NCBI GenBank assembly: GCA_963695385.1
Contig: OY968780.1
Span: forward strand, 263,321-327,320
Direction: 5' to 3'
Source: an uncultured Coriobacteriia bacterium
GTDB lineage: Bacteria; Actinomycetota; Coriobacteriia; Anaerosomatales; PALSA-660
Length of the DNA stretch: 64,000 nucleotides
Part shown: in pieces, positions 1-58,007 of the stretch
How the letters are laid out: the number at the start of each line of letters is the position of its first letter
Numbering within the stretch: the first letter of the stretch is position 1
The notes under the pieces: model-generated
The model's database searches: none
What the model was told of the DNA's origin: nothing
Seen by the model: only the letters and a program-made list of their open reading frames with translations
Program-made: the position numbers and the translations under genes

Positions 1-209
1 GAGGCCTGGCCGAGAAGGCCGGCCTCTATCTGGAGCTGCGCAAGAGATCGAGGGCAACGTCGTCAGCGCGGGCGACGAGCATCACCTGAAGGGCAGTCGT
101 CTCGGCACTTGGGGGTGCCGTCTCGCATCAGTCACATCCATACGGCCAGCGGTCCGCTATCCGCCAATGACGGAAGGGGCGGCGGTCCGCGAAGGGAGGG
201 GCGGTTGAG

Positions 210-1736: not shown

Positions 1737-1796
1737 GGCAAGGGGGTTGTTCCCTGCCCGATTGACTCGTGCGGTCGCTGAGAATACAGTGAACGC

Positions 1797-2186
1797 ATGA
1801 GCATATACTCAGACATCTCAGACGCCGATCCGATCTGCGAGACCCCATCGGTCGACAGTCGAACATCGGCCAGGGTCGCCGCGGCCATCTCGGGCGGGCC
1901 CAGGCGAAAGGCCGCCTGCGACGTCCACGGCGCGATGGCGGACCCGACCCGGCACCGCATCCTCGAAGCTCTCGCCTGCGAGCCCCTCTGCGTGTGTGAT
2001 ATCGCCGGGATCGCGGAGGTCAGCCAATCCGCGGTCTCCCATCAGCTGCGTATCCTGAGGGACCTCGATCTGGTCACCTTCCAACGGGAGGGTCAGAGGG
2101 TCGTCTACCGGCTGTCGGACGAACACGTGCGCACGCTCCTGACGATGGGCCTCGAACACGCGTCCGAGCGGACAGGTGAGAGATGA
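1797..2186 (+). CDS. ArsR/SmtB-family metal-sensing repressor, CadC-like
   Basis: 'ADPTRHRILEALACEPLCVCDIAGIAEVSQSAVSHQLRILRDLDLV' is a winged-HTH with the CVCD metal-site motif of ArsR/CadC. The N-terminal extension carries extra Cys/His. An alternative start is ATG 1935. The stop overlaps ATG 2183 (ATGA). Confidence 0.85.
   Translation: MSIYSDISDADPICETPSVDSRTSARVAAAISGGPRRKAACDVHGAMADPTRHRILEALACEPLCVCDIAGIAEVSQSAVSHQLRILRDLDLVTFQREGQRVVYRLSDEHVRTLLTMGLEHASERTGER
1798..1811. promoter_or_regulatory. Imperfect palindrome TGAGCATATACTCA, candidate ArsR/SmtB-type operator
   Basis: 12 of 14 positions are self-complementary. It is AT-rich in a GC-rich background and lies at the 5' end of the ArsR-family ORF. 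A duplicated CTCAGA follows at 1808..1822. Confidence 0.3.
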
Positions 2187-4369
2187 GTGCCGCGGACGCC
2201 GCGCGCGCTTCATGGCGCGTGACGGGGCTCGATTGACCCGACTGCGCGCGGACCGTGGCCAAGTCCGTATCGCTCGTGCCCGGAGTCATCTCGGCGGACC
2301 TGAGTTTCGCCGGCGGAGTGCTGATGCTCGAGTACGATCCCGCCGCGGATCCGCTGGATGCGGTCGTCTCCGTGTTCCGTTCCGCGGGCCTGGGAGTCGA
2401 GCAGGTCTCCGCGCCAGGTGTCGCCTCGACCTCCCCGGCGCTCCCGACCCCCACCTGGTGGGAGCGTCATGGGCATGTCGCATCCGTGGTCGCGTCAGGC
2501 GTGCTGATCGCGATCGGCTTGGCGCTGCAGGAGGGCGGGAGACCCGCGTTCTCGGGAGCCGCGACGGCCGCGAATCTCGCGGCCGTGCTGGCAGGCGGTC
2601 TGTTCGTGGGCCGGCGCGCCTGGAACTCCGTCCGCGCCCGTTCGCTGGACATGAACGTCCTCATGTCTCTGGCGGTGATAGGCGCCGTGCTCATCGCGGC
2701 TTTCCAGGAAGCGGCCGCCATCGTGTTCCTGTTCTCGCTGGGACAGCTGCTCGAGTCCCGGGCCCTCGATCGGACCCGGCGCTCCATCAGGGACCTCATG
2801 GACCTGACCCCCACGGTCGCTCGGGTCCGTCGGAGTGGGAGCGACGTGAAGGTGGGGCTCGATGAGGCGGTCGTCGGCGACCTGCTGATCGTGAAGCCGG
2901 GGGAGCGGATAGCCCTCGACGGCAAGGTGATCAGGGGAGCGTCGGCGGTCGATGAGGCCGCCATCACCGGTGAGTCGGTGCCGGCCGAGAAGGCGCCGGG
3001 ATCGCTCGTCTACGCGGGGACCGTGAACGCCTCCGGCCTGCTCGAGGTCGAGGTCACAAGCCTGGCGGCCGACTCCACCCTGGCGCGAATCGTGTACCTG
3101 GTGGAGGAGGCGCAGGCGCAGCGGGCCCCGACGCAGCGCCTTGTGGACAGGTTCACTCGCTGGTACACCCCCGCCGTCGTCGGACTCGCCGTGGCGATAG
3201 CGGTCCTCCCGCCGGCAGTCGGCTCGCTCTCTGCGGCCGGCGCGCTACCCTTCGACACGTCCTGGTCGACGTGGTTCTATCGCGCGCTGGTGATGCTGGT
3301 CGTCGCCTGTCCCTGCGCGCTTGTCATCTCGACGCCGGTGGCGATCGTCTCCGCCATCACGCGGGCCACTAGGGACGGGGTGCTGGTCAAGGGCGGCGCG
3401 TTCCTGGAGACCGCAGCGGGGGTGCGCGTCGTGGCGTTCGACAAGACCGGCACGCTGACGTGCGGTCGCCCCGAGGTCACAGATGTCGTGCCGCTGGGGG
3501 CGGAAGACTCGGCGGAGGTGCTGCGCATCGCCGCGACGCTGGAGGCCGGATCGACACATCCCGTCGCGGCGGCGGTCCTTCGCGCCGCAGCGACGACCGG
3601 GGGAGTGGCGACTCTCGAGCAGTTCGAGGATCTCGCGGGCAGAGGCGTCCGCGCGAGGATCGACGGAATCAGCTACAGCATCGGGAGCCCCTCGCACGCG
3701 GAAGGTGACGGCGCGGTGACAGACGCCTCGTCGGCCGGGATCGTGCGTCTCGAGGACGAGGGCAAGTCAGTGCTGGTGCTGTCCCGGGAGGACGTGCCCC
3801 TGGGTCTGATCGCCGTGGCCGACGAGATCCGTCCGGAAGCGCGCGACATCGTGGCGGCCCTGAGGCGCGGCGGCGTCGAGCACGTGGTGATGCTCACCGG
3901 CGACAATCCGCGCACTTCCGCGGCCGTCGCCTCCTTGGCCGGCGTCACCGAGTACCGTGCGCGGCTGCTGCCCTCGGACAAGGTCGACGCCGTGAGGGAG
4001 ATGCAGTCTCGGTTCGGTGTGGTGGCCATGATCGGTGACGGGGTGAACGACGCTCCGGCGCTGGCCGCGGCGGACATCGGTATCGCGATGGGAGCCGCGG
4101 GCAGCGACACCGCGCTCGAGACAGCGGACGTCGCGCTCATGGCGCCCGAATTGCACGAGCTTCCGAGGTTCCTGCGCCTGGGCCGGCGCACGGTGGCCAA
4201 CATCAAGTTCAACGTCGGCTTCTCCATCGTGACGAAGGCGATCGTGCTGGTGATGGCGTTCTTCGGGATGGCGTCTCTGTGGCTGGCCGTATTCGCCGAC
4301 ATGGGCGTGTCGCTGCTCGTGACTCTGAACGGTTTGCGGCTCCTGCGGCCCGGCGAGGCGGACGGCTAG
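2183..4369 (+). CDS. Zn/Cd/Pb-type (P1B-2) heavy-metal P-type ATPase. The uninterrupted ORF starts at GTG 2255, but the HMA domain continues upstream to ATG 2183 across an in-frame TGA (2234..2236).
   Basis: Motifs 'VVACPCALVISTP' (CPC), 'DKTGTLT' and 'GDGVNDAPAL' are present. TM7/8 'NVGFSIVTK' (N-x7-K) and 'ADMG' (DxG) fit the Zn/Cd subgroup. The upstream in-frame translation is MSAADAARASWRVTGLD*PDCARTVAKSV... Confidence 0.8.
2246..2273 (+). other. Hairpin about 10 nt downstream of the in-frame TGA (candidate SECIS-like element)
   Basis: GCG-CGGAC / loop CGTGGCCAA / GTCCG-(tat bulge)-CGC. Five contiguous pairs plus three more across a 3-nt bulge. Found by eye only, in GC-rich DNA where such hairpins arise easily. 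Confidence 0.25.
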
Positions 4370-4370: not shown

Positions 4371-5400
4371 TGAACAGTCCAGACACGTTGTTTACGCGTG
4401 GACCCGCGATATCGGTCGTTGACCGCCGATGCCACCATGCGGTCGGTACAGATTGTAGTACCTGAGGAACGGGTCGAGCTTCTTTGTCCGTTCCTCTGTG
4501 TTCTGGTAGGCGTCCGCGTATGCCCACTCGTTCGTGACGATTCTGACGAACGCCTCTGCCTTGCCGTTGGTTTGTGGCCGGTACGGCCTCGTCTTGCGCA
4601 TGGAAACGCCTCGATGCGCGAGCAGGTCGCGGAACAGATTGGAGCGGTAGCCGGACCCGTTGTCCGTAAGGATCCGGCGCACCTCAATACCGGCGCTCTC
4701 GAAGAAGTCCAAGGCGTGCTCGGCGAAGGAAGCGACGCTCGCGGCGGTCTCGTCGGGCAGAATCTCGACGAAGGCCAGACGCGAGTGGTCGTCGGTCGCG
4801 ACGTGGACGAAGTCCCAACCGATCCCGCGGTCACGTTTGCGCGAGCCGCCGCCGTGGATGCGCTTGCCGCCGCCCTGCCCGATGCGCCCGAGCTTCTTGA
4901 TGTCGAGGTGGATCATGTCACCAGGCTCAGGCCACTCGTAGCGCACCGTCTTGTCCCGCTCGACGCTTTGCAGGCGGTTCAGGCCGAGCCGACGCAGGAC
5001 GGCGTGCACCGTCGAGCCGGCGATGCCGAGTTGCCAGCCCAGGAAGTGCGGGCCGCGACGAAACCGCAGGCGGGCCCTGGCGATGCGCTTCATGGTTTCG
5101 CGGCCGACCTGGGGACGGGTGCGATGCGGGCGTGAACTCGCGTCGCGCAGAGCGTCGGGACCTTGGCGCCGGAATCGATTGACCCACTTGCTCGCGGTCT
5201 GTCGTGAAACGCCGGCAGCGCGTGCCGCGCTGCCAACCGTCCAGCCGGCGGCGACTCGCTCGACCATCAGGGCTCGCTGGTAGACGGACAAGCGGGCGTT
5301 AGGATGTTGCACGAGGACCCCTCTCTTCGGCTGTGGCGTAGACAACCAACAACCGACAGGAAGGGGTCCTCACCTGTCAACAACCTATGTGGACTGTTCA
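4371..5400 (-). mobile_element. IS481-family insertion sequence (copy 1, 1030 bp)
   Basis: Terminal inverted repeats are TGAACAGTCCAGACACGTTGTT (left) and the reverse complement of the right end, TGAACAGTCCACATAGGTTGTT (19/22 match). It carries a single rve/DDE transposase ORF and is flanked by a GCTAGC duplication. Confidence 0.9.
4392..5345 (-). CDS. IS481-family transposase (HTH + integrase-core DDE domain)
   Basis: '...GWTVGSAARAAGVSRQTASKWVNRFR...GDMIHLDIKKLGRI...WDFVHVATDDHSRLAFVEIL...ILTDNGSGYRS...[17 protein letters not shown]...[13 protein letters not shown]'. By alignment with copy 2, the homologous start may be GTG 5312. Confidence 0.9.
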   Translation of the reverse strand: MSTPQPKRGVLVQHPNARLSVYQRALMVERVAAGWTVGSAARAAGVSRQTASKWVNRFRRQGPDALRDASSRPHRTRPQVGRETMKRIARARLRFRRGPHFLGWQLGIAGSTVHAVLRRLGLNRLQSVERDKTVRYEWPEPGDMIHLDIKKLGRIGQGGGKRIHGGGSRKRDRGIGWDFVHVATDDHSRLAFVEILPDETAASVASFAEHALDFFESAGIEVRRILTDNGSGYRSNLFRDLLAHRGVSMRKTRPYRPQTNGKAEAFVRIVTNEWAYADAYQNTEERTKKLDPFLRYYNLYRPHGGIGGQRPISRVHA

Positions 5401-6888: not shown

Positions 6889-9213
6889 TCACGCGCGCTC
6901 CCTGATGCGCATGGACAGGTGGCCCAGGACGCCGGGGTCGTCGACAGGCTCTCCCTGAGCGTCGACGATATGGAAGACGTCGCGCACGACCCCCCCTCTC
7001 GTCGTCGCCCGCGCCCAACGGATGTCCAGGCCCGACTCGGATATCGCCCGTGCGATGTCGTGGAGCAGTCCCACCCGATCTGCCGCTGTCACGTAGAGCA
7101 CGGTTGCGTACGCCGCCGCGGCTTCGGTGGACACCGTCGTCTCGGCGGACGATCTTGGGGCGTAGTGACGCCGGCGTTCCGAGAGTCGCGCCTCGAGTTC
7201 CAGGTGGTCGTCGAGCGCAGCCGTCAGGTACCTTTCGAACGCGCTCCAAGTGCCCGTGTCGGCCGCGGCCAGGGTATCGGGCCGAACGACGAATGTGTCG
7301 AGGACCACGTCACCCGGCGCGGCGTAAGCATCTGCCGAGAGGATGTCCAGGCCCGCCAGCGCGAGGGCGCCCGCGATGGCGACGAATAGACCCGGACGGT
7401 CGGCCGCGGCCACGGTCAGACGCCACGTGCCGTGGACCGGCCCGGCGGTCACGGAGATACGCAGCCGCGGTCCGCCCCGGGTCCGCGCGACGTCGGCCGC
7501 CAAGGCGGCGTGCGCGGCTACGTCTCCGGGCGTCTGGGTCGCCAGGTACCTCAGGTGCGCTCCGCGGACGAACGATGCCGCCTCCGGAGCGGAGTCGCGT
7601 CCGAGCAGGGCGAGCGCGTGGGTTCGAACCTCCTCGGCGCGCGCGGCCACGCCGGCGCCTTCCACGTCCTCTGCGAGGGCCGCCGAGAGCCGGTCGGCAA
7701 GTTCGCCGAGGAGAGCCGCATGCCATGGCGTCCAGCCTCCGGGTCCGGTGGCCACGGAGTCGGCGGCGGTCAGCAGGTACAGACAGTCGACCAGGTGAGG
7801 CTGTCCGATCCGATCGGCGGCGCGAAGCAGGACGTCCTCATCGTGGACGTCCTGAGTCCCCGCTACCTCCGGGAGAAGCAGATGCTCCCGGATCAGGAGC
7901 ACCGCGTCCCGCGACCCCTCCTCCCCCAAGCCGAACCGGGGGAGGAGGGTCCGGGCGATCGCCGCCCCGCGCGCAGGGTGTCCGGGGCCGGACTGCACCT
8001 TGCCCGCGTCATGCAGAAGCGCCGCGGCCTGGAGGGCACGGACATCACCGATCCGCTCGAGGCGCTGCCTGGCGCCCGCATCGATCGCCGGCAGACCGGG
8101 TATGAAGGCGGCGCACCGCAGGCTGTGCGCCCCCACCGTGTAGGCGTGCGCCAAGCCCGGCCGCCGTATCGTCATCAGATCCCGGAGTCCCGGCCACAGG
8201 TCATCCAGACGGTCGGACCAAGCGGCTCGCTCGAGTTCCGGCAGCGAGCGCTCGCCTTCGTCCAGGAGCCGGAACAGCTCCGCGGGCGTCACGGGCGCCG
8301 ATCCGTGCGGCGCCAAGAGGTCCGCCGCACCCTCCTCGCGTGTGGACTTCCGAGTCGAACTCCGGAGCGCGCGCTCGCGCGTCTGCAACAGGATGTGGTG
8401 CACGTCCGCGAGGGCCGCCTGCACCGCGCTCACGTCCTGGCCGAGTTCCTCCGCCACATCCAGGCTCAACAGCGACGTAGGTCGCGGCGAGGCGAGGTGC
8501 AAAGCCCACCGCGCCGCGGTGATGCGCTCCGAGGCCACGGCGAGTACCGCGGCCTCGCCAGGCGAGAGCACCCCGAGCGCTACCAGCGGCGAAGGATCGC
8601 CGGCCGGCGTCCCGCTCAGGATCGCCGCCGTCCACGTAAGCTCATCGAGGTCGCGTTGACCGCCGGCCCCCTCCTTCAGGTCCGGCTCGAGCAGGTATGG
8701 TGACCCGGTCCGGTCGCGGGACCGCAGGATCTCGAGCAGACGCCGCGAGCGTCTACCGGCATCAGCGAACGTGTCGACGAGAAGCCGAAGCCCGAGGTCC
8801 GGGTCGCCGCACAGGACGCGTCCCGTCAGGGTGGCCGTCAGCGTCGCGATGTCGCTTCGCGCCGCTCGCGAGTGGTCTCGCCGTGACCGCACCTGGTGAC
8901 CGACCTGGAGACCCGAGTCCCACAGGGGGTAGAGCACCCGCTCCAGTGCGGGCCGAAGCTCCGTCGCCGGCGCGTCGGTGACCACCAGCAGGTCGAGATC
9001 GGAACCGGGAAGGAGCCGCCGAGCGCCCCAGCCGCCGAGGGCGAGCACGACCCATGGCGCCCGAAGGTCGGACAGCGCGATCTCCCCCATGCTCGAGACC
9101 GCGCTGTCGGTCAGTTCGCTCAGAGCGCGCGCGGCGGACCCGCCGGGCCGGGACGTCGCGATCAGCGACTCGCGCTCAGCCAGGTACACTCCGACCAGGT
9201 CGGCGGGCGTCAT
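6889..9213 (-). CDS. glnD: [Protein-PII] uridylyl/adenylyl-transferase GlnD (NTase + HD + 2 ACT domains)
   Basis: 'LALGGWGARRLLPGSDLDLLVV' is the NTase, 'LLHDAGK' the HD domain, and there are C-terminal ACT-like repeats. It lies downstream of glnK. The ORF extends to 9345, but that part overlaps glnK, so the start was taken at MTPADLVG. Confidence 0.9.
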   Translation of the reverse strand: MTPADLVGVYLAERESLIATSRPGGSAARALSELTDSAVSSMGEIALSDLRAPWVVLALGGWGARRLLPGSDLDLLVVTDAPATELRPALERVLYPLWDSGLQVGHQVRSRRDHSRAARSDIATLTATLTGRVLCGDPDLGLRLLVDTFADAGRRSRRLLEILRSRDRTGSPYLLEPDLKEGAGGQRDLDELTWTAAILSGTPAGDPSPLVALGVLSPGEAAVLAVASERITAARWALHLASPRPTSLLSLDVAEELGQDVSAVQAALADVHHILLQTRERALRSSTRKSTREEGAADLLAPHGSAPVTPAELFRLLDEGERSLPELERAAWSDRLDDLWPGLRDLMTIRRPGLAHAYTVGAHSLRCAAFIPGLPAIDAGARQRLERIGDVRALQAAALLHDAGKVQSGPGHPARGAAIARTLLPRFGLGEEGSRDAVLLIREHLLLPEVAGTQDVHDEDVLLRAADRIGQPHLVDCLYLLTAADSVATGPGGWTPWHAALLGELADRLSAALAEDVEGAGVAARAEEVRTHALALLGRDSAPEAASFVRGAHLRYLATQTPGDVAAHAALAADVARTRGGPRLRISVTAGPVHGTWRLTVAAADRPGLFVAIAGALALAGLDILSADAYAAPGDVVLDTFVVRPDTLAAADTGTWSAFERYLTAALDDHLELEARLSERRRHYAPRSSAETTVSTEAAAAYATVLYVTAADRVGLLHDIARAISESGLDIRWARATTRGGVVRDVFHIVDAQGEPVDDPGVLGHLSMRIRERA

Positions 9214-14044: not shown

Positions 14045-16921
14045 TTGCCCCTCGACTACATCTCCATCCGGGGTGCCAGGGAACACAACCTGCGCGGCGT
14101 GGACCTGGACATCCCGCGCGACAAGCTCGTCGTCATCACCGGACTGTCCGGCTCCGGCAAGAGCTCGCTGGCGTTCGACACTGTGTATGCGGAGGGTCAG
14201 CGCCGCTATGTGGAGTCGCTGTCGGCGTATGCGCGGCAGTTCCTCGGGCAGATGCAGAAGCCGGACGTGGACCACATAGAGGGCCTGAGCCCGGCGGTCT
14301 CCATCGATCAGAAGACGACTTCGCGAAACCCGCGATCCACGGTGGGCACCGTGACCGAGATCTACGATTACCTTCGTCTGCTGTATGCGAGGGTCGGCAT
14401 ACCGCACTGCCCCACCTGCGGCAGGGTGATCGAGCGACAGACGCCGCAGCAGATCGTCGACCGCGTCATGGAGATGACGAGCGGGGCGAAGTTCACCGTG
14501 CTGTCGCCGGTGGTCAAGGGACGCAAGGGCGAATACGGCAAGCTGCTCGACGACCTCAAGAAGGAAGGCTTCACGCGAGTGCGCGTGGACGGGCAGGTCC
14601 GCGGGCTCGACGAGGAGATCGTGCTCGACAAGAAGTACCGGCACGACATCGAGGTGGTCATAGACCGCCTCGTGATGAAGCCGGGTATCGAGCAGAGGCT
14701 CACCGAGTCGGTCGAGATGGCGCTGAAGCTGGCCGGCGGGACTCTCATCGTGGCGCCGGAGGACGCCGAGGAGATCTCGTTCTCGCAGGCCTTCTCGTGC
14801 CCCGTGCACGGCGTGAGCATGGACGAGCCCCAACCGCGCGACTTCTCCTTCAACAGTCCCTATGGGGCCTGCCCGGAGTGCACCGGCCTCGGCAGCCGCC
14901 TGGAGCCCGATCCGGATCTCATCGTGCCCGACCCTTCGCGGTCGCTGAACGAGGGGGCCATCAAGCCCTTCTCCGGCGGACAGACCTACTATCCTCAGCT
15001 CGTGGCGGCCGTAGCCAGGCATTTCGGCATTTCCGAGGACGCCACGTGGTCGGACCTGCCCAAGAACGTCCGTGACGCGTACCTCTTCGGGCTCGGTGAC
15101 CAGCGGATCCGGATCGACTACACCACGCGCGACGGACGCGAGACGCACTGGTTCTCGCGCTTCGAGGGCGCGCTGCATTCCATCAAGCGGCGCTGGGAGG
15201 AGACCGAATCCGACGGCAGTCGCGAGAAGCTCGAGGAGTACATGTCCGTCGTGCCGTGCGCTGCATGCGGAGGCGCGAGGCTGAAGCCGGAGATACTGGC
15301 CGTGACGTTCGGCGGGCGCAACGTGGCCGAGGTCACCGCTCTGTCCGCGAAGGATTCACTCGCGTTCTTCTCCGGCGTCGAGCTCACGGAGCGCGAGGAG
15401 CACATCGCGCGGCTCGTCATCAAGGAGATCATGGAGAGGCTGCGGTTCCTGGTCGACGTGGGCCTGGACTACCTCACGCTGGAGCGCGCGACCGCCACGC
15501 TGTCGGGTGGCGAGGCGCAGCGCATCCGCCTGGCCACACAGATCGGGTCGGGCCTGATGGGGGTGCTCTACATCCTGGACGAACCGTCCATCGGCCTTCA
15601 TCAGCGGGACAACGCGCGCCTCATCGGTACGCTTCTGCGTCTGCGCGACCTGGGCAACACCGTCATCGTGGTCGAGCACGACGAGGAGACGATCCGCGCG
15701 GCTGACTTCGTGGTCGACATGGGCCCCGGAGCCGGGGAGCACGGAGGAGGGATCGTCTGCGCGGGATCGCCCGAGGAGATAATGGCCTCGCCCGAATCGC
15801 TGACCGGCGAGTACCTGTCAGGAGCGCGCAGCATCCCCATGCCGACTTCCCGCCGCGAGACGGACCGCGGGGCGATCCGCATAGTGGGTGCGCGGCAGAA
15901 CAACCTGAAGGATCTCACGCTGGACATCCCGCTGGGCTCCTTCGTGGTCGTGACCGGTGTGTCCGGATCAGGCAAGAGCTCGCTGGTGAGCGACACGCTC
16001 GCTCCCGCGCTGACGAACGCGGTCGTTCGCACTCGCAGGCGCACGGGGAAGTACGAACGCATCGAGGGCCTGAGGGAGATCGACAAGGTCATCGTCATCG
16101 ATCAGTCGCCGATCGGTCGCACTCCGAGGTCCAACCCCGCCACCTACATCGGTCTTTGGGATGACATCCGCTCCCTCTTCGCCTCGACCCACGAGGCCAA
16201 GGCGCGCGGCTACTCCCCGGGCCGGTTCTCTTTCAACGTGGCCGGCGGCCGCTGCGAGGCCTGCAAGGGCGACGGCCAGATCAAGATAGAGATGCACTTC
16301 CTGCCGGATGTCTATGTCCCATGCGAGGTGTGCAAAGGCACTCGCTACAACCGTGAGACGCTGCAGATCACCTACAAGGGACGCAACGTGTCGGACGTGC
16401 TCGACATGTCGGTCGAGGAGGCCGTGCACTTCTTCGAGAACATCCCGCCCATCAAGCGGAAACTGCAGACGCTGTATGACGTCGGGCTGGGCTACGTGAA
16501 GCTCGGTCAGCCGGCCACCACCCTCTCCGGCGGCGAGGCGCAGCGCGTCAAGCTGTCGAGCGAGCTGCAGCGGCGGTCGACCGGACGCACCTTCTACGTC
16601 CTCGACGAGCCGACCACAGGCCTGCATTTCGACGACGTGCGTCAGCTGTTGGTGGTTCTGCAGAGACTTGTCGACGCCGGCAACACGGTGCTGGTCATCG
16701 AGCACAACCTGGACGTGGTCAAGTCCGCGGACTGGGTCATCGACCTCGGACCGGAGGGCGGCGACCGCGGCGGAGAGATCGTCGTTGTCGGGACCCCGGA
16801 GCAGATCGCGGCGCACCCGACATCACACACTGGGCGCTTCCTGAAGCCGGTGCTCGAAGGACGGGGAGCCAGCGTGGCGCCGGAGGGGGATCTCGCGACG
16901 CCGGTGACGTCAGGGGGCTAG
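14045..16921 (+). CDS. uvrA: Excinuclease ABC subunit A
   Basis: 958 aa. It has two ABC modules ('[13 protein letters not shown]', '[11 protein letters not shown]', 'LSGGEAQR' twice) and zinc-finger Cys clusters. Confidence 0.97.
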
Positions 16922-17874
16922 GTGTACTGCCCAGACACGTTGTTGACACTGGGCACCCGTGAAATCGGTGGTAGACCGCCAATGCCGCCGTGCGGACGCC
17001 TGTGATTGTAGTTGAAGACCCAGCGAGGGAGCGCCGCCAGGCGCTCCCCGTTGCTGTCATAGGGTTTGGCGTAGGCCCAGGCGTTGATGAGCATCCGGAT
17101 GAAGCGCTCGGCCTTGCCGTTTGTCTGCGGTCGATACGGACGCGTGTGTGACCGCTTCACGCCGTGCTCCTCGAGCACAGCGAGCTGGGCGTGTGAGTAG
17201 TAGGACATCGCGTTGTCGGTGAGCAGCCTCCTGACCTCTATGCCGAGCGAGGCGTAGTGGCCGATGGCCCGCCTCGTGAACCCGGCTACCGTCTCGGCCC
17301 GCTCGTCGGCGTGCACCTCGACGTAGGCTAGGCGTGAGTGGTCGTCGATGGCCACATGGAGGAAGTCGAACCCGCCGCCGACATTGCGCTTCTTTGCCAC
17401 GCGACCTCCGAACCTCCAGCCGCCACCCTCGCCCAGGCGCCCGAGCTTCTTGACGTCTATGTGGATGAGGTCGCCGGGTGAGGCGTGCTCGTAGCGCACG
17501 GCAGGGGGCCTGGGTTCACGGTCCAGATCACGCAGGCGTCCGTGACCGTTGCGAGCCAGGACCGCATAGACCGTGGAGCGCGGGATGCCCGTGTTCCAAG
17601 AGATCGCGAGCGGGCCTTCCTTCTGCCTGCGCCGACGCCAGATCCTGCGGAAGTCGCGGGGGCTGATGCGCTGTCGGATCCGCTCCGGGCGGCTCGACCG
17701 GTCGTGCAGACCCGACTCGCCCCAGGTCCTGAACCGTCCGAGCCACTTGTGCGCGGTCTGTCGGGAGATGCCGGCGGCGCGGGCGGCATCGGTGACCGTC
17801 CACGCCTGTTCGGCCACACGCCTGCACAGCAGTCTGCGGCCGAGAACGGTCAGCGGGGCGTTAGGATGTGACAC
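16918..17874 (-). CDS. IS481-family transposase
   Basis: '[14 protein letters not shown]...[20 protein letters not shown]...[11 protein letters not shown]...[17 protein letters not shown]...[12 protein letters not shown]'. The stop codon lies in the flanking CTAG. Confidence 0.9.
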
Positions 17875-37912: not shown

Positions 37913-38020
37913 CCTTCGGGGCTACCCTGTGGACCGATGCGTCGCAGGTCAGCGCGCGTGTCCGGCGTCTCGAGCGTGTGCTATACTTCCGTCTCGCGCT
38001 GGCTCCCGGCGCTGACAATC

Positions 38021-38106
38021 GTCCGAGTGGCGGAACGGCAGACGCGCTAGGTTGAGGGCCTAGTGAGGGCAACCTCGTGGGGGTTCAAATCCCCCCTCGG
38101 ACACCA
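38021..38106 (+). tRNA. tRNA-Leu (anticodon GAG)
   Basis: Acceptor stem GTCCGAG/CTCGGAC. Anticodon stem CTAGG/CCTAG with loop TTGAGGG. Long variable arm. T arm GGGGG-TTCAAAT-CCCCC. The 3' CCA is encoded. Confidence 0.9.
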
Positions 38107-38115
38107 GCACAGATA

Positions 38116-38152
38116 CCGCAGCCCCCGTCGTTCCTCCGGGGGCTGCGGCTTT
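38116..38152 (+). terminator. Hairpin terminator after tRNA-Leu
   Basis: CCGCAGCCCCCG-(9 nt)-CGGGGGCTGCGG followed by CTTT. Confidence 0.55.
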
Positions 38153-38326
38153 CATGTGGCGCTCCGCAAGATACCTTCCCGACGGACGGCAGCTCGATTC
38201 CGGCCTCCTACGCGGGGGGATAAGTGAGGGGGGCCGATGCCGGCGCGGCTTCGTCCCGGGGTGATCGGATGGTCGCGCCGGAGTCGCCACAGACACTCAA
38301 GCCGGCGCGGGAAGGAGGGATCGAGC

Positions 38327-39976
<1,650 letters not shown>

Positions 39977-40012
39977 GTCCGCTCGCAGTCCCTCACTGGG
40001 CGTCGCGGCGTC

Positions 40013-52665: not shown

Positions 52666-53970
52666 ATGTCGCTGACCTACACCGCGTACCTTCTTCTCGG
52701 CTTGGCCACCAGCCTGCATTGCATAGGCATGTGCGGCGGCCTGGTACTCACTTACTCGGTGAAGCATGACGGGCACGGCGGGTTCTTTCGCAGGTTGGCG
52801 CCGCATCTCGCCTACCAAGGCTCCAAGATGCTGAGCTACATGGTGGTGGCTCTCCTGCTCGGTTCAGTCGCCGCGGCGCTTGGCGGCGCGTTCGATCTCA
52901 CGACCGCGCGCAACTGGATCATGCTGGTCGCCGGCGTGTACATGGTGCTTCTGGGACTCGGCATGACCGGCTACTTCCCGTGGCTCGGGCATCTGAGCCC
53001 CAGACCTCCCAAGTTCCTCACGAAGCTCCTGTCCGCGAACCGGAAGCGCGCCCTGGCGGACTCGAAGCACGGTGAGGTCCACTATGCCACCCCCGTGACC
53101 TTCGGGCTGCTGACCGGACTGTTGCCCTGCGCGCCCCTGATCACCGCGCAGGTGGGCGCGATCTCCTCCGGCTCGCCGCTCACCGGGGCGCTTCTCATGG
53201 CAGCGTTCGCCCTGGGGACGGCACCGCTCATGATCGTCTTCGGACTGGCGTCCAGTTTCGCATCCGGGGCCATGCGTCAGCGGATGCAGTACGTGGCGGC
53301 CGTCGCCGTCGTGATCTTCGGTCTGGTCATCTTCAACCGCGGACTCATGCTCGTGGGCTCGCCGGTCACGTTCGACACCGTGCGCCGGGCCGTCGCGGGA
53401 GACGCGCCGAAGGCAGGCCAGAAGTGGCGAGTCGTGGACGGCGTGGCCGTCTACGACCTGGTCATCAGGGACGTGGAATTCGTCCCCAGCGTGGTGAGGG
53501 TTCCTGCCGACAGGCCCGTGCGGCTCGTCGTCGATCGCCAGGAGGACAACGCGTGCTCCGATCAGATTGCCATCCCGCGTATGGGCGTGCTGGTCAACCT
53601 GGCTCCGAACGCCAAGACCACGGTGAACCTCCCTGCGACCGCGGCGGGTTCGTATACGCTCACTTGCGGCATGGGGATGATGGCGGGGCGGATCATCTTC
53701 GGGGGAGGCGGAACCGGCCCGACTATATGGATGTGGGTCCTGGGATTGGGCGCGATCGCCGCGATGGGCGTCATCTGGGTGCGGGCGGTCCGACGACACC
53801 GCGTGACCCAGGCAGGCGGTGGGGGCAACGGCAAGCGTCCCCGGTCGTCCGACAAGACGTCTCCGGGCGTCTTCTTCGGCTTCACCGCGGTGGAGACGGC
53901 GCTGTTGATCGGCGGGGTCACTACCGCGATAGTGGCCGGTCTGGTGCTTGGAGGAGTGTTGGGGCGCTGA
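52666..53970 (+). CDS. Fusion of a DsbD_2/TauE-like polytopic membrane domain (HCxxMCG) with a cupredoxin-like domain and C-terminal TM helices
   Basis: N-terminus 'LGLATSLHCIGMCGGLV'. Cupredoxin-like part 'VIRDVEFVPSVVRVPADRPVRLVV...AAGSYTLTCGMGMMAGRIIF'. Two further hydrophobic helices at the end. Confidence 0.65.
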   Translation: MSLTYTAYLLLGLATSLHCIGMCGGLVLTYSVKHDGHGGFFRRLAPHLAYQGSKMLSYMVVALLLGSVAAALGGAFDLTTARNWIMLVAGVYMVLLGLGMTGYFPWLGHLSPRPPKFLTKLLSANRKRALADSKHGEVHYATPVTFGLLTGLLPCAPLITAQVGAISSGSPLTGALLMAAFALGTAPLMIVFGLASSFASGAMRQRMQYVAAVAVVIFGLVIFNRGLMLVGSPVTFDTVRRAVAGDAPKAGQKWRVVDGVAVYDLVIRDVEFVPSVVRVPADRPVRLVVDRQEDNACSDQIAIPRMGVLVNLAPNAKTTVNLPATAAGSYTLTCGMGMMAGRIIFGGGGTGPTIWMWVLGLGAIAAMGVIWVRAVRRHRVTQAGGGGNGKRPRSSDKTSPGVFFGFTAVETALLIGGVTTAIVAGLVLGGVLGR

Positions 53971-54090
53971 CGCACACCGAACCCGCGCGAACGGTGCGCT
54001 CAGGCGGCACGCGATTCGCTCATCGGCGGTGATAGCATTCTTGGGAACGATCTCGCCGGGCGAGGCGGGTCCTAAGCAAGGGAGGCTCAG

Positions 54091-54312
54091 ATGTCTGAGA
54101 CCACGGTAAGGCTCAAGACCACGGGCATGCACTGCAATTCGTGCTCGATGCTCGTGCAGATGACAGTGGAGGACCTGCCGGGAGTCGCGGCCGTCAAGGC
54201 CGACTTCCCGACGGGGATCACCGAGGTGACCTACGACCCGGACGTGCTGGAAGTCTCGCAGATAATCGACGCGGTGGTTGGCGCCGGGTACGGAGCAGAG
54301 GTCGCCGCCTAG
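54091..54312 (+). CDS. copZ: HMA-domain copper chaperone (CopZ-like)
   Basis: 73 aa, '[16 protein letters not shown]...'. Confidence 0.9.
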
Positions 54313-54328
54313 TCACGAGAGGCAAGAG

Positions 54329-57268
54329 ATGCCGGAACCATCGGGCAGGAGCGTACTCACGCCGAGCAGGATCGTAGTGACACGGCGTGTCGAAGGCATG
54401 CACTGCGGTTCGTGCGAGAAGACGCTGGTCGACATCCTGATGCGCATCGACGGGGTGGAGTCCGCCGCGGCCGATTCGCAGGCTGGCTTGGTGAAGGTCT
54501 GGCTGGATCCAGAGCGCGTGAGCGACGACGACGTACTGGTCGCCGTCATCGACGCCGGGTTCAAGCCCGGCGACGTCATGTCTCGCGAGCCGTTCGAGGG
54601 TCCCGCCCCGGAACCGGGGCAGCGTATCCCGTCGGCGGGCGAGTCGGGCGAGAAGGAGGCCACGTTCGCGGTCACGGGCATGACGTGCGCGTCTTGTTCG
54701 GCCGTGATCGAGAAGGTGCTCTCACGCAAGCCCGGGGTCAGCGAGGCCGTGGTCAACCTCGCGGCGGAGAAGCTGACCGTTCGCTTCGACAGTGCCGTCA
54801 CAGACAGTGAAGCCATAGTCACCGCGGTCGAGGCGGCCGGCTACGGCGCCACGCCGTTGGCGGCTGAGAAGGGGAGTGCGGCAGGCGGGAGGGTGACCCT
54901 CGCCATCACAGGGATGACCTGTGCTTCGTGCTCCGCGGTCATCGAGAAGACGTTGCAGCGTCTCCCGGGAGTGGCTTCGGCGACGGTGAACCTGGCGATG
55001 GAGACGGCGGTGGTCGAGTTCGACCCGACCGTGCTGGGTCCCGACGAGCTGATATCGGCGGTCAAGCGAGCCGGGTATGGGGCCACGCTCAAGGTCGAGC
55101 AGGGCGGTCCGATGGCGGGCGGCGAGGACGACGCACAGAAGGTCGCCCAGGAGGCCTACCATCGCCACCAGCGCTTCCTGCTCATCTTCAGCGCCTCGTT
55201 CGCGATACCGCTGTTCCTGATCGCGATGGTGGAGCCGTTCATGTCGGCCGTGCCCACGATCGTGGCCGGATGGTTCGGCATCCGATCCTCCGGGATGATG
55301 GGCGGCGCGGCCTCCATGGGCGGCGATCCGGTCGCGCAGATCCACAAGTACATCATGCTGGCACTCGCCTTGCCGGTGCAGGTCTACGCGGGTGCGCAGT
55401 ACTACCGCGGATTCTGGCACGCCATCCAGCGGCGCACCGGCAACATGGACACTCTGATCGCGATCGGCACCTCCGCGGCGTTCGCCTATTCGCTGGCGGC
55501 CACTTTCGTGCCGTCGCTCAGCGGCCAGCCGGTCTTCTACGAGACGTCCGCTCTGCTGATCACGTTCGTTCTGCTGGGCAAGTACCTCGAGGCCCGCGCC
55601 AAGGGCAAGACGTCCGACGCCATAAAGAAGCTGATGGGCTTGGCCGCCAAGACCGCGCGCGTCCTGCGCGGCGGCGACGAGGTCGACATCCCCGTCGAGC
55701 AAGTGGTCGTCGGCGACCTGGTCGTGGTGCGCCCCGGCGACAAGGTCCCCGTGGACGGCGTCCTCACCGAGGGTTCCTCGGCCGTGGACGAGGCCATGCT
55801 CACGGGGGAGCCGATACCCGTGGAGAAGAACGTCGGCGACACGGTAATCGGCGCCACCATCAACAAGCTCGGTTCCTTCAGGTTCCGCGCGACCAAGGTC
55901 GGTTCGGACACGGCGCTCGCGCAGATAGTGAAGCTGGTGGAGGATGCGCAGGCTTCCAAGGCGCCGGTCCAGCGCTTCGCCGACCGCATCAGCGCTGTGT
56001 TCGTCCCCGGTGTGATCGGCGCCTCCCTTCTCACGTTCGTCTTCTGGTTCTTCGCCGGGCCGGCGCTCTTCGGCGCCAAGCCGGACGCCGCGAACGCGTT
56101 CATCCTGTTCGAGCCCGTTCTGGTTCTCGCGGCCAACAACGGGTGGCTTGTCGCTTCGCTGCTGGCAGCCACGGCGGTCGTGGTCATCGCCTGCCCGTGC
56201 GCGCTCGGCTTGGCGACTCCGACGGCGATCATGGTCGGCACGGGCAAGGGCGCGGAGAACGGGATCCTGATAAAGAGCGGCGGTGCGCTCGAGACGGCGT
56301 ACAAGCTCACCGCCGTCGTGTTCGACAAGACCGGCACTCTGACGCACGGGACGCCCGTGGTCACCGACGTGGAGCTGATGGACGGTCATGACATCGATCG
56401 CATGCTTACTTTCGCTGCCGCGCTCGAGAAGTCCAGCGAGCATCCGCTGGCTGAGGCGATCGTCGCCCACGCGGCGGCGCAGGGAGTCGAATTCCCGCCC
56501 GTCGAGGGGTTCTCCGCCGTGCCCGGCCATGGGGTCGAGGGATCCGTGGACGGTCATCGTGTCGCGCTGGGCAATCGCAAGCTGATGGCTCGCGAGGGGA
56601 TCGACGTCAGCGCTCACGAATCACGCATACGGGAACTCGAGGAGCAGGGCAAGACGGTCATGCTCGTGGGCATGAACGGCAAGAAGGCCGCCGGGCTGAT
56701 CGCGGTGGCGGACACGCTGAAGGACAACTCCCGCGAGGCGGTGTCGCGCTTGAGCGCGATGGGCGTCGAAGTGTACATGATCACCGGCGACAACCATCGA
56801 ACGGCCGCGGCGGTGGCGCAGCAGGCGGGGATACCGGCCGATCACGTGCTGGCCGACGTTCTTCCGGAGCACAAGGCCGAGGAGGTCGCAAGACTCCAGA
56901 AGGACGGCAAGGTCGTGGCCATGGTCGGCGACGGCATCAACGACACGCCCGCACTCGCGCAGGCCGACGTCGGTATCGCCATGGGTGCGGGGACCGACGT
57001 GGCCATGGAGACCGGCGATGTCGTGCTCATCCGCAACGACCTGCGGGACGCCGTGAGCGCCATCGAGCTGTCGCGCGCGACCATGCGCAAGATCCACCAG
57101 AACTTCGCCTGGGCGCTCGGCTACAACACGATCCTGATCCCGGTCGCCGCCGTCGGTCTTCTCTCGCCCTTCCCCTGGGTCGCCGGCGCCGCCATGGCGG
57201 CCTCGTCCGTGAGCGTAGTGTCCAACTCGCTGCTGCTTCGTGGGTTCAGACCGTCGTTGGTGCGCTAG
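54329..57268 (+). CDS. copA: Cu(I)-translocating P1B-1 ATPase with three N-terminal HMA domains
   Basis: HMA motifs 'GMHCGSC' and 'GMTCASC' twice. Also '[12 protein letters not shown]', 'DKTGTLT', '[10 protein letters not shown]', TM7 'LGYNTILIP' and TM8 '[13 protein letters not shown]'. Confidence 0.95.
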
Positions 57269-57278
57269 ACTGCTGGGT

Positions 57279-58007
57279 ATGACCGGTCAGGTGGGCATGG
57301 CGGCGGCGTTCGGAGCGGGATTGATCTCGTTCCTGTCTCCGTGTGTCCTGCCGCTGATCCCCGCGTACGTCTCCTTCATGACTGGGATGTCTCTCGCCGA
57401 ACTCACGGATGGTGACAGACGGAGTTGGCGCATCCTCGGTCCCGTACTCCTGTTCGTGGCCGGGTTCTCGGTCATGTTCGTGGCGCTGGGTGCCGGCGCC
57501 TCCGTCCTCGGCGCTCTGCTCAACGCCAACCGCATTCTGCTGACGCGCGTGGCCGGCGTCGTGATGATGCTGCTCGGAGTCATCCTGCTCGACGTGGTGC
57601 GGATCCCGTGGTTGGGAGGCGGACGCGGAGTGGACGCGGCCTCCTTCAGGAAGTTCGGGCCGATGGCGTCGTTCGCGTTCGGCCTCGCTTTCCCGTTCGC
57701 CGTCGGTCCGTGTGCCGGGCCGGTGTACGGGGCGATCCTGACACTGGCGGTGGACAGCCGCAGCGTCGGCACGGGAGCGCTGCTTCTGTTCATCTACTCG
57801 GTCGGGCTCGCCCTGCCGTTCATCGCCGTGAGCCTGTTGCTGGATCGCCTCACCGGGACCATGCGCTGGCTCTCGCGTCACTCGGTACTGATCCGGCGAT
57901 TCGCCGGAGCCGTGTTGATCGTGATGGGGCTGGCGATGGTGACCGGGGTGATAGATCAGGTCTCCAGGCTGCTGCAGTCGTTGCCGGTGATCGGCACGAT
58001 AGGCTGA
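57279..58007 (+). CDS. ccdA: CcdA/DsbD-family thiol-disulfide electron-transfer membrane protein
   Basis: 'FLSPCVLPLIPAYVSF' and a second Cys 'AVGPCAGPVYGAIL'. Confidence 0.88.
   Translation: MTGQVGMAAAFGAGLISFLSPCVLPLIPAYVSFMTGMSLAELTDGDRRSWRILGPVLLFVAGFSVMFVALGAGASVLGALLNANRILLTRVAGVVMMLLGVILLDVVRIPWLGGGRGVDAASFRKFGPMASFAFGLAFPFAVGPCAGPVYGAILTLAVDSRSVGTGALLLFIYSVGLALPFIAVSLLLDRLTGTMRWLSRHSVLIRRFAGAVLIVMGLAMVTGVIDQVSRLLQSLPVIGTIG

Follow-up and report, generated by a model that had tools for sequence, protein, structure and literature searches.

A very probable selenocysteine codon in the metal-binding domain of a heavy-metal P-type ATPase from an uncultured Coriobacteriia bacterium

Heavy-metal P-type ATPases are among the known selenoprotein families (Zhang & Gladyshev 2007, PMC1976440). 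Peng et al. (2016, PMC5029168) counted 32 proteins of this family in 25 organisms, and a 2026 review in Applied and Environmental Microbiology (PMC13188914) describes the family by the profile TIGR01525, a UxxC motif and one selenocysteine (Sec, U), with ABB15669.1 as an example. In these cation-transporting ATPases (E1-E2), the single Sec opens the UxxC motif of the N-terminal metal-binding domain, and homologues with cysteine are common. Here, we analyzed a stretch of 64,000 nucleotides from an uncultured Coriobacteriia bacterium (contig OY968780.1, positions 263,321 to 327,320; hereafter the window), in which the gene of a heavy-metal P1B ATPase (2183..4369, plus strand) carries an in-frame TGA (2234..2236, plus strand) at the first position of such a motif. 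Sequence comparison indicates that this TGA is very probably a selenocysteine codon, a reading supported by the conserved alternation of Sec and Cys, by coding constraint upstream and downstream of the UGA, by a hairpin restricted to the Sec forms and by intact ATPase motifs. A previous inspection of the letters alone (the sequence-only reading) had noted that P-type ATPases are listed in selenoproteome surveys, and the three publications cited above bear this out.

The Zn(II)/Cd(II)/Pb(II) P1B-2 ATPases of the ZntA/CadA type are a second point of comparison. When paired with CadC/ArsR-SmtB regulators, they form regulator-pump operons with overlapping stop and start codons, and the same organization is found in the window. 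An ArsR/SmtB-family metalloregulator gene (1797..2186, plus strand, 129 amino acids, with a CVC motif) precedes the ATPase gene, and its product reaches 63.2 bits with PF01022 (cut-off 22) and 94.4 bits with NF033788 (cut-off 55). Its stop codon TGA (2184-2186) overlaps the start codon ATG (2183-2185) of the ATPase gene as ATGA, just as the sequence-only reading had described, and an ArsR gene likewise lies directly upstream of the ATPase gene in relatives. Upstream of the regulator gene, a sigma-70-like promoter candidate, TTGACT-17-TACAGT (1762..1790, plus strand; one site versus 0.2 expected in shuffles), is the probable promoter of the operon, judging by its match to the consensus.

According to translation and NCBIfam profiles, the ATPase coding sequence comprises 728 codons with the predicted Sec as codon 18. 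Read from ATG 2183, the frame encodes MSAADAARASWRVTGLD up to the TGA at 2234-2236 and then PDCARTVAKSVSLVPGVISADLSFAGGVLMLEYD; beyond the TGA it continues (PDCARTVAKSVSLVPGVISADL...) and stays open up to the TAG at 4367-4369, and no other in-frame TGA is present within 2183-4369. A mechanical open reading frame (ORF) call instead starts at GTG 2255 and yields 704 amino acids ending at the same TAG, with the in-frame ATG 2183 upstream, both as previously noted. The Shine-Dalgarno-like sequence AGGTGAGAG stands before ATG 2183, while nothing of this kind precedes GTG 2255. The TGA takes the place of the first cysteine of G-x-D-C-x-x-C, the second being encoded by TGC at 2243-2245, and the resulting U18-P-D-C21 (UxxC) is the single predicted Sec site of the protein. 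With cysteine placed at the TGA, the N-terminal HMA metal-binding domain (residues 12-69; 2216..2389, plus strand; motif G-L-D-U-P-D-C) scores 33.9 bits with PF00403 against a cut-off of 24.8, compared with 15.2 bits for the product starting at GTG 2255. The Pfam cut-off is therefore reached only when the TGA is read through, in line with the earlier claim of a complete HMA domain with the TGA at its first cysteine.

The read-through product passes TIGR01525 (heavy metal translocating P-type ATPase) with 594.8 bits against 346.25 and TIGR01512 (cadmium family) with 509.5 bits against 313.5. All ATPase motifs are intact, namely TGES at residue 262, CPCALVISTP at 376, DKTGT at 420, THP at 458, GDGVNDAP at 618 and a C-terminal DMG at 706. 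The combination of TGES, CPCx6P, DKTGT, HP and GDGxNDxP with DxG in the last helix is what we take to be the Zn/Cd/Pb-type (P1B-2) signature in the classification of Arguello. The domain order is also that of ZntA/CadA, with an HMA domain, a core of eight transmembrane helices with CPCx6P and the C-terminal DxG, and the DKTGT, HP and GDGVNDAP motifs. The scores with the ZntA models are far below their equivalog cut-offs (616 bits with NF008262, cut-off 1005; 546 bits with NF033775, cut-off 1240), and the protein therefore does not qualify as a strict ZntA orthologue. In contrast to ZntA/CadA pumps with a Cys-type HMA domain, the pump of the window has Sec as its predicted first metal-binding residue. 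As it passes TIGR01525 and has the U-x-x-C motif, it belongs to the cation-transporting ATPase E1-E2 selenoprotein family; Sec status is predicted both for the known members and for the gene described here. The gene differs from those members in its host, a high-GC, uncultured environmental Coriobacteriia bacterium. In addition, most close homologues within its clade are Sec forms, and these have a fixed selenocysteine insertion sequence (SECIS) of their own.

Conservation of the TGA was examined in relatives whose DNA was fetched from a genome collection and translated upstream in frame, giving 18 informative loci from Coriobacteriia/Actinomycetota. The stop within G-L-D-*-P-D-C-A-R-T-V is TGA in 11 of them, and the other seven have TGC or TGT. 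This alignment of orthologues, which the sequence-only reading had proposed, thus shows TGA alternating with cysteine codons, and the hairpin described below is found in the Sec forms only. Metagenome contigs were scanned with the exact pattern GGN YTN GAY TGA CCN GAY TGY GC, which matched 106 stretches. About half of these are true HMA-ATPase genes, with the frame open and conserved on both sides of the TGA; the remaining matches are chance occurrences in other genes. Genomes and metagenomes together provide 60 distinct Sec-form sequences of 66 nt from 67 loci. The TGA is kept across diverged orthologues sharing 51-70% protein identity, and the position is otherwise filled by cysteine codons.

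The codon pattern around the TGA was consistent with a translated gene. In the ten codons before it, positions 1 and 2 are conserved and position 3 is saturated, as exemplified by the invariant glycine at -3, with entropies of 0/0/1.79 for the three positions; Arg -6 and His -10 show the same pattern. Downstream of the TGA, the frame is open in all Sec-form sequences. The constraint upstream indicates that translation passes through the TGA in this frame. The Asp codon directly before it (2231-2233 in the window; loci L003-L185) is GAT in nearly all Sec forms, with a third-position entropy of 0.12, although 75% of all Asp codons in these genes are GAC and the Cys forms usually have GAC at this position. 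The preference possibly reflects an influence of codon context on the recoding of UGA. The window carries the full signature of the Sec forms, GAT-TGA followed by CGG ACC GTG .. .. TCC, and differs in its codon pattern from the Cys forms.

Immediately 3' of the UGA, the transcript would form a SECIS-type hairpin (2248..2268, plus strand), assigned from published constraints on bacterial SECIS (bSECIS) elements and from its conservation. It consists of a 6-bp stem and a 9-nt apical loop, with the 5' arm GCGGAC at 2248-2253, the loop CGUGGCCAA at 2254-2262 and the 3' arm GUCCGU at 2263-2268; pairing of 2244-2246 with 2271-2273 could extend it by a lower stem. The span of 2246..2273 given in the sequence-only reading fits this stem together with its lower extension, and the G/GU that it had placed in the apical loop about 18-26 nt downstream corresponds to the G-U at +22/+23. 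According to the bSECIS model (PMC13188914), the loop measures 3-9 nt with a G in its first two positions, the upper stem 4-16 bp and the distance from UGA to loop 16-37 nt, with a minimum free energy of at most -7.5 kcal/mol. The hairpin satisfies all of these constraints, with a loop of 9 nt carrying G at position 2 followed by U, a stem of 6 bp, a spacing of 17 nt between UGA and loop, and a minimum free energy of -11.4 kcal/mol with the lower stem or about -7.7 kcal/mol for the hairpin alone. The E. coli fdhF-type SECIS, as captured in the bSECISearch consensus, is likewise a stem-loop within the coding sequence directly 3' of the UGA, with a loop G then U near the 5' side. In fdhF, these loop nucleotides are G23 and U24. 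However, the hairpin of the window does not resemble the E. coli elements in sequence and was not seen to contain a bulged U, and its loop is 9 nt long in most members of the clade and 5 nt in a minority; binding by SelB is predicted.

In sequences of 70% GC, folding energy discriminates poorly, and the hairpin was therefore tested by its presence at a specific position. Hairpins with a stem of 5 bp or more and a 5' arm located at +16..+20 were present in 59 of the 60 Sec forms and in none of the seven Cys forms. When 18,000 synonymous randomisations were generated with the codon usage of these genes, 5.9% had such a hairpin. The type seen in the window is present in 49 of the 60 Sec forms, and ten more have alternatives with the same position of the 5' arm. 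In nine sequences, a change of G18 to C breaks the common stem, and a stem CGCAC/GUGCG with a 5-nt loop is found instead; eight of the 60 Sec forms are counted with this 5-nt-loop stem, and L090, one of the nine, has CGCGC/GCGCG with a double change from A-U to G-C. Further variants are a 3-nt loop (L116) and a stem GCGCGG/CCGCGC (L161). A low-GC lineage from metagenomes (L086/L148/L168) has U at the same HMA position (EVTGLD-U-PDCAGKLV) and a longer stem, GGGAAG(+16..21)/CUUCCC(+43..48), so that its SECIS differs from that of the Coriobacteriia but shares the 5' arm start at +16.

The same region is marked by frozen synonymous sites. CGG is used at its site in 50 of 59 sequences versus 25% elsewhere in the same genes, ACC in all 57 (42% elsewhere), GTG in 58 of 59 (47%) and TCC in 51 of 56 (22%). 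These sites lie in the stem and in the 5' part of the loop, while neighbouring invariant residues have third-position entropies of 1.3-1.8. In the register given above, 94.5% of cells pair, compared with 20-37% when the partner is slid.

Several results weigh against a selenocysteine codon or leave the case for it less direct. The folding energy is not distinctive, with a z of -0.25 versus dinucleotide shuffles of the window sequence and a mean of -0.57 versus synonymous-codon randomisations. The sequence-only reading had looked to covariation of the hairpin in relatives. Within the common register, however, two-sided changes were seen in none of the pairs, and 157 of 500 shuffles reached the covariation score. 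This weakness of classical covariation is explained by the near invariance of the stem; support for the stem comes instead from the register-shifted alternatives in ten sequences, one of them with the A-U to G-C double change, and from the frozen synonymous sites. A search of the window with Rfam at gathering thresholds returned a tRNA-Leu and no SECIS match. With energy, covariation and Rfam unremarkable, the case for the SECIS rests on position-specific conservation, restriction to the Sec forms, register-shifted compensatory variants and the fit to the model. As to the decoding machinery, ARAGORN found no tRNA-Sec in the 64-kb window, and none of the 38 window ORFs scanned with Pfam matched SelA, SelB or SelD; in the 186 fetched loci, neither tRNA-Sec (ARAGORN) nor selD was found, the latter by tblastn with an E. 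coli SelD query. The literature yielded nothing specific on Sec use in OPB41/Anaerosomatales. In addition, an IS481-family transposase gene (4392-5345, minus strand) starts 23 nt past the ATPase stop codon, and the locus may have been disturbed recently. Finally, the Sec status of every member of the clade is a prediction from sequence. When the window and the loci were scanned for in-frame TGA in a CxxU/UxxC context, the ATPase was the only gene recovered; a look-alike at 7841 of locus L004 belongs to an ordinary small ORF.

The least improbable alternative, though a very unlikely one, is a nonsense mutation of TGC to TGA, leaving either a pseudogene or a pump rescued from GTG 2255 with a crippled HMA domain. 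TGC is a single base away from TGA, the 704-amino-acid frame from GTG 2255 is intact, the insertion element adjoins the gene, and no Sec machinery was found in the window or the fetched loci. Against this stand the same TGA in 60 distinct homologous sequences and the presence in the window of the Sec-form codon pattern with its hairpin, found in none of the seven Cys forms. Moreover, the 17 codons upstream of the TGA and the ATGA coupling are intact, and AGGTGAGAG stands before ATG 2183 but nothing similar before GTG 2255.

Very unlikely, in our view, is a read-through of the UGA that does not involve selenium, either by a near-cognate tRNA (Trp or Cys) or by a lineage-specific reassignment, with the hairpin as a general stimulator. 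The negative searches for Sec machinery in the window and the loci would again be compatible with this explanation, as would the fact that Sec-decoding systems insert cysteine at UGA under selenium limitation. However, TGA is still an ordinary stop in the window, used by about a third of the long ORFs and by arsR only 48 nt upstream, which argues against a reassigned code. In addition, the position alternates with cysteine codons only and lies in a metal-binding CxxC site, the classical Sec/Cys pattern; the hairpin geometry and the G-U of the loop fit the SelB-dependent bSECIS model; and the family is already catalogued as selenoproteins. An error of sequencing or assembly at 2236, with C or T as the real base, is exceedingly improbable, as TGA recurs independently in dozens of assemblies from different projects and an error would not coincide with the GAT-TGA context and a hairpin specific to the Sec forms. 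The sequence-only reading had regarded nonsense mutation and base-call error as equally valid alternatives to selenocysteine; the 60 Sec forms, the hairpin confined to them and the coding constraint upstream favour Sec, and this comparative evidence effectively excludes both.

If the TGA encodes selenocysteine, the product of 2183-4369 would be a heavy-metal efflux ATPase of the P1B type, probably of the Zn/Cd/Pb class, in which Sec replaces the first cysteine of the CxxC site in the N-terminal HMA domain (G-L-D-U-P-D-C). The gene would be co-transcribed with that of the ArsR/SmtB metal-sensing repressor and translationally coupled to it through the ATGA overlap, and the UGA would be decoded by Sec-tRNA(Sec) through the standard bacterial mechanism. 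A selenolate/thiolate pair may have a higher affinity than a dithiolate for soft metals (Cd, Zn, Pb, possibly Hg) and may bind them at lower pH. The Sec site could in this way adjust the N-terminal domain of the pump in its regulatory or metal-receiving role. Sec would here act as a metal ligand and not as a redox catalyst.

The predicted Sec codon also has consequences for database entries. Many of the proteins retrieved with the read-through product as query are 687-698 amino acids long and lack the HMA Pfam domain. Among the 120 closest proteins listed, 55 have N-termini beginning V/M-E/A/Q-K-S-..., the residue matching GTG 2255, and roughly 18 others begin slightly further downstream (55-73 affected; P0003-P0117). 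A start at the GTG in the SECIS loop implies an N-terminally truncated call in which the metal-binding site is lost. Thus, the GTG at 2255..2257 (plus strand; Val25), taken as the start of ORF 2255..4369, is a predicted false start picked by ORF and gene callers, and, if Sec is encoded, the shared start at this codon is a signature of systematic truncation at the Sec codon. Since more than half of the closest entries listed are truncated, domain surveys undercount HMA domains as well as selenoproteins in uncultured Coriobacteriia. The correct annotation of the gene would start at ATG 2183 and mark 2234-2236 as a translation exception (Sec). Two of the proteins, P0007 and P0010, retain a second HMA domain of the Cys type.

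In a rough neighbour-joining tree of 40 full-length proteins, seven Cys forms are interspersed among the Sec forms. Since a single SECIS sequence is common to most of the Sec forms, the clade has probably had Sec for a long time and switched from Sec to Cys several times. A more far-reaching proposal would make Sec the ancestral and majority state with repeated reversion to Cys and let the GTG of the loop, 19 nt after the UGA, double as a re-initiation codon; we consider this combination unlikely. Under such a scheme, available selenium would give a full-length pump with a selenium-containing metal sensor domain, and scarce selenium would lead to termination at the UGA and a restart at GTG 2255, producing a still-active pump without the HMA domain. 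The sole positive support for two products is the invariance of the GTG, which is already explained by the G-U requirement of SelB binding. Many relatives have an extra N-terminal CxxC domain of about 70 residues, which the gene of the window lacks; a short N-terminus is seen in 12 of the 60 Sec forms, the window included.

With selenocysteine as the preferred reading, the advance over earlier work is modest. The selenoprotein family itself is known, and the gene opens no new category; new are the host lineage, the Sec majority, the clade-specific SECIS with its variants and the scale of mis-annotation. A large and environmentally widespread clade would be added to a selenoprotein family known by prediction. 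With its natural Sec/Cys pairs and its two or three different SECIS solutions, this clade could be used to ask why selenium serves a metal-sensing domain and how the SECIS constrains the overlapped residues A-R-T-V-x-K-S.

The remainder of the window is core chromosome with uvrA, uvrC, rapZ, whiA, gap, tpi, pgm, two amt genes, glnD and rpoN, together with an oligopeptide ABC system, and a search for a plasmid origin gave no meaningful plasmid match. UvrC shares at most 80% identity with any database protein, and its named relatives are uncultured Coriobacteriia. Many homologues of uvrC and of the ATPase gene lie on contigs of equal size, some of 34-43 kb, which suggests that both genes are located on the same contigs and that the location is a stable chromosomal one and not the result of recent transfer. 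The ATPase gene thus appears to be a long-standing resident of the chromosome. A second IS481-family transposase gene is located at 16918-17874 (minus strand).

The window also encodes a CopA-like P-type ATPase of 996 amino acids (54278-57268, plus strand) with three ordinary Cys-type HMA domains (GMxCxSC). It belongs to a second metal cluster (52666-58007), together with a DsbD_2/cupredoxin protein (52666-53970, plus strand) and a DsbD_TM protein (57240-58007, plus strand). A composition anomaly was observed at 38001-40000 near a tRNA-Leu gene (38021-38106), with a GC content of 0.705, a GC skew of -0.154 and an AT skew of +0.245, and an ORF of 579 amino acids at 38237-39976 is without a Pfam match. 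In high-GC actinobacteria, TGA is the usual favoured stop codon. For a genome of 66% GC, stop usage in the window is rich in TAG: the 33 long ORFs with high GC at third codon positions end with about 20 TAG, about 11 TGA and two TAA.

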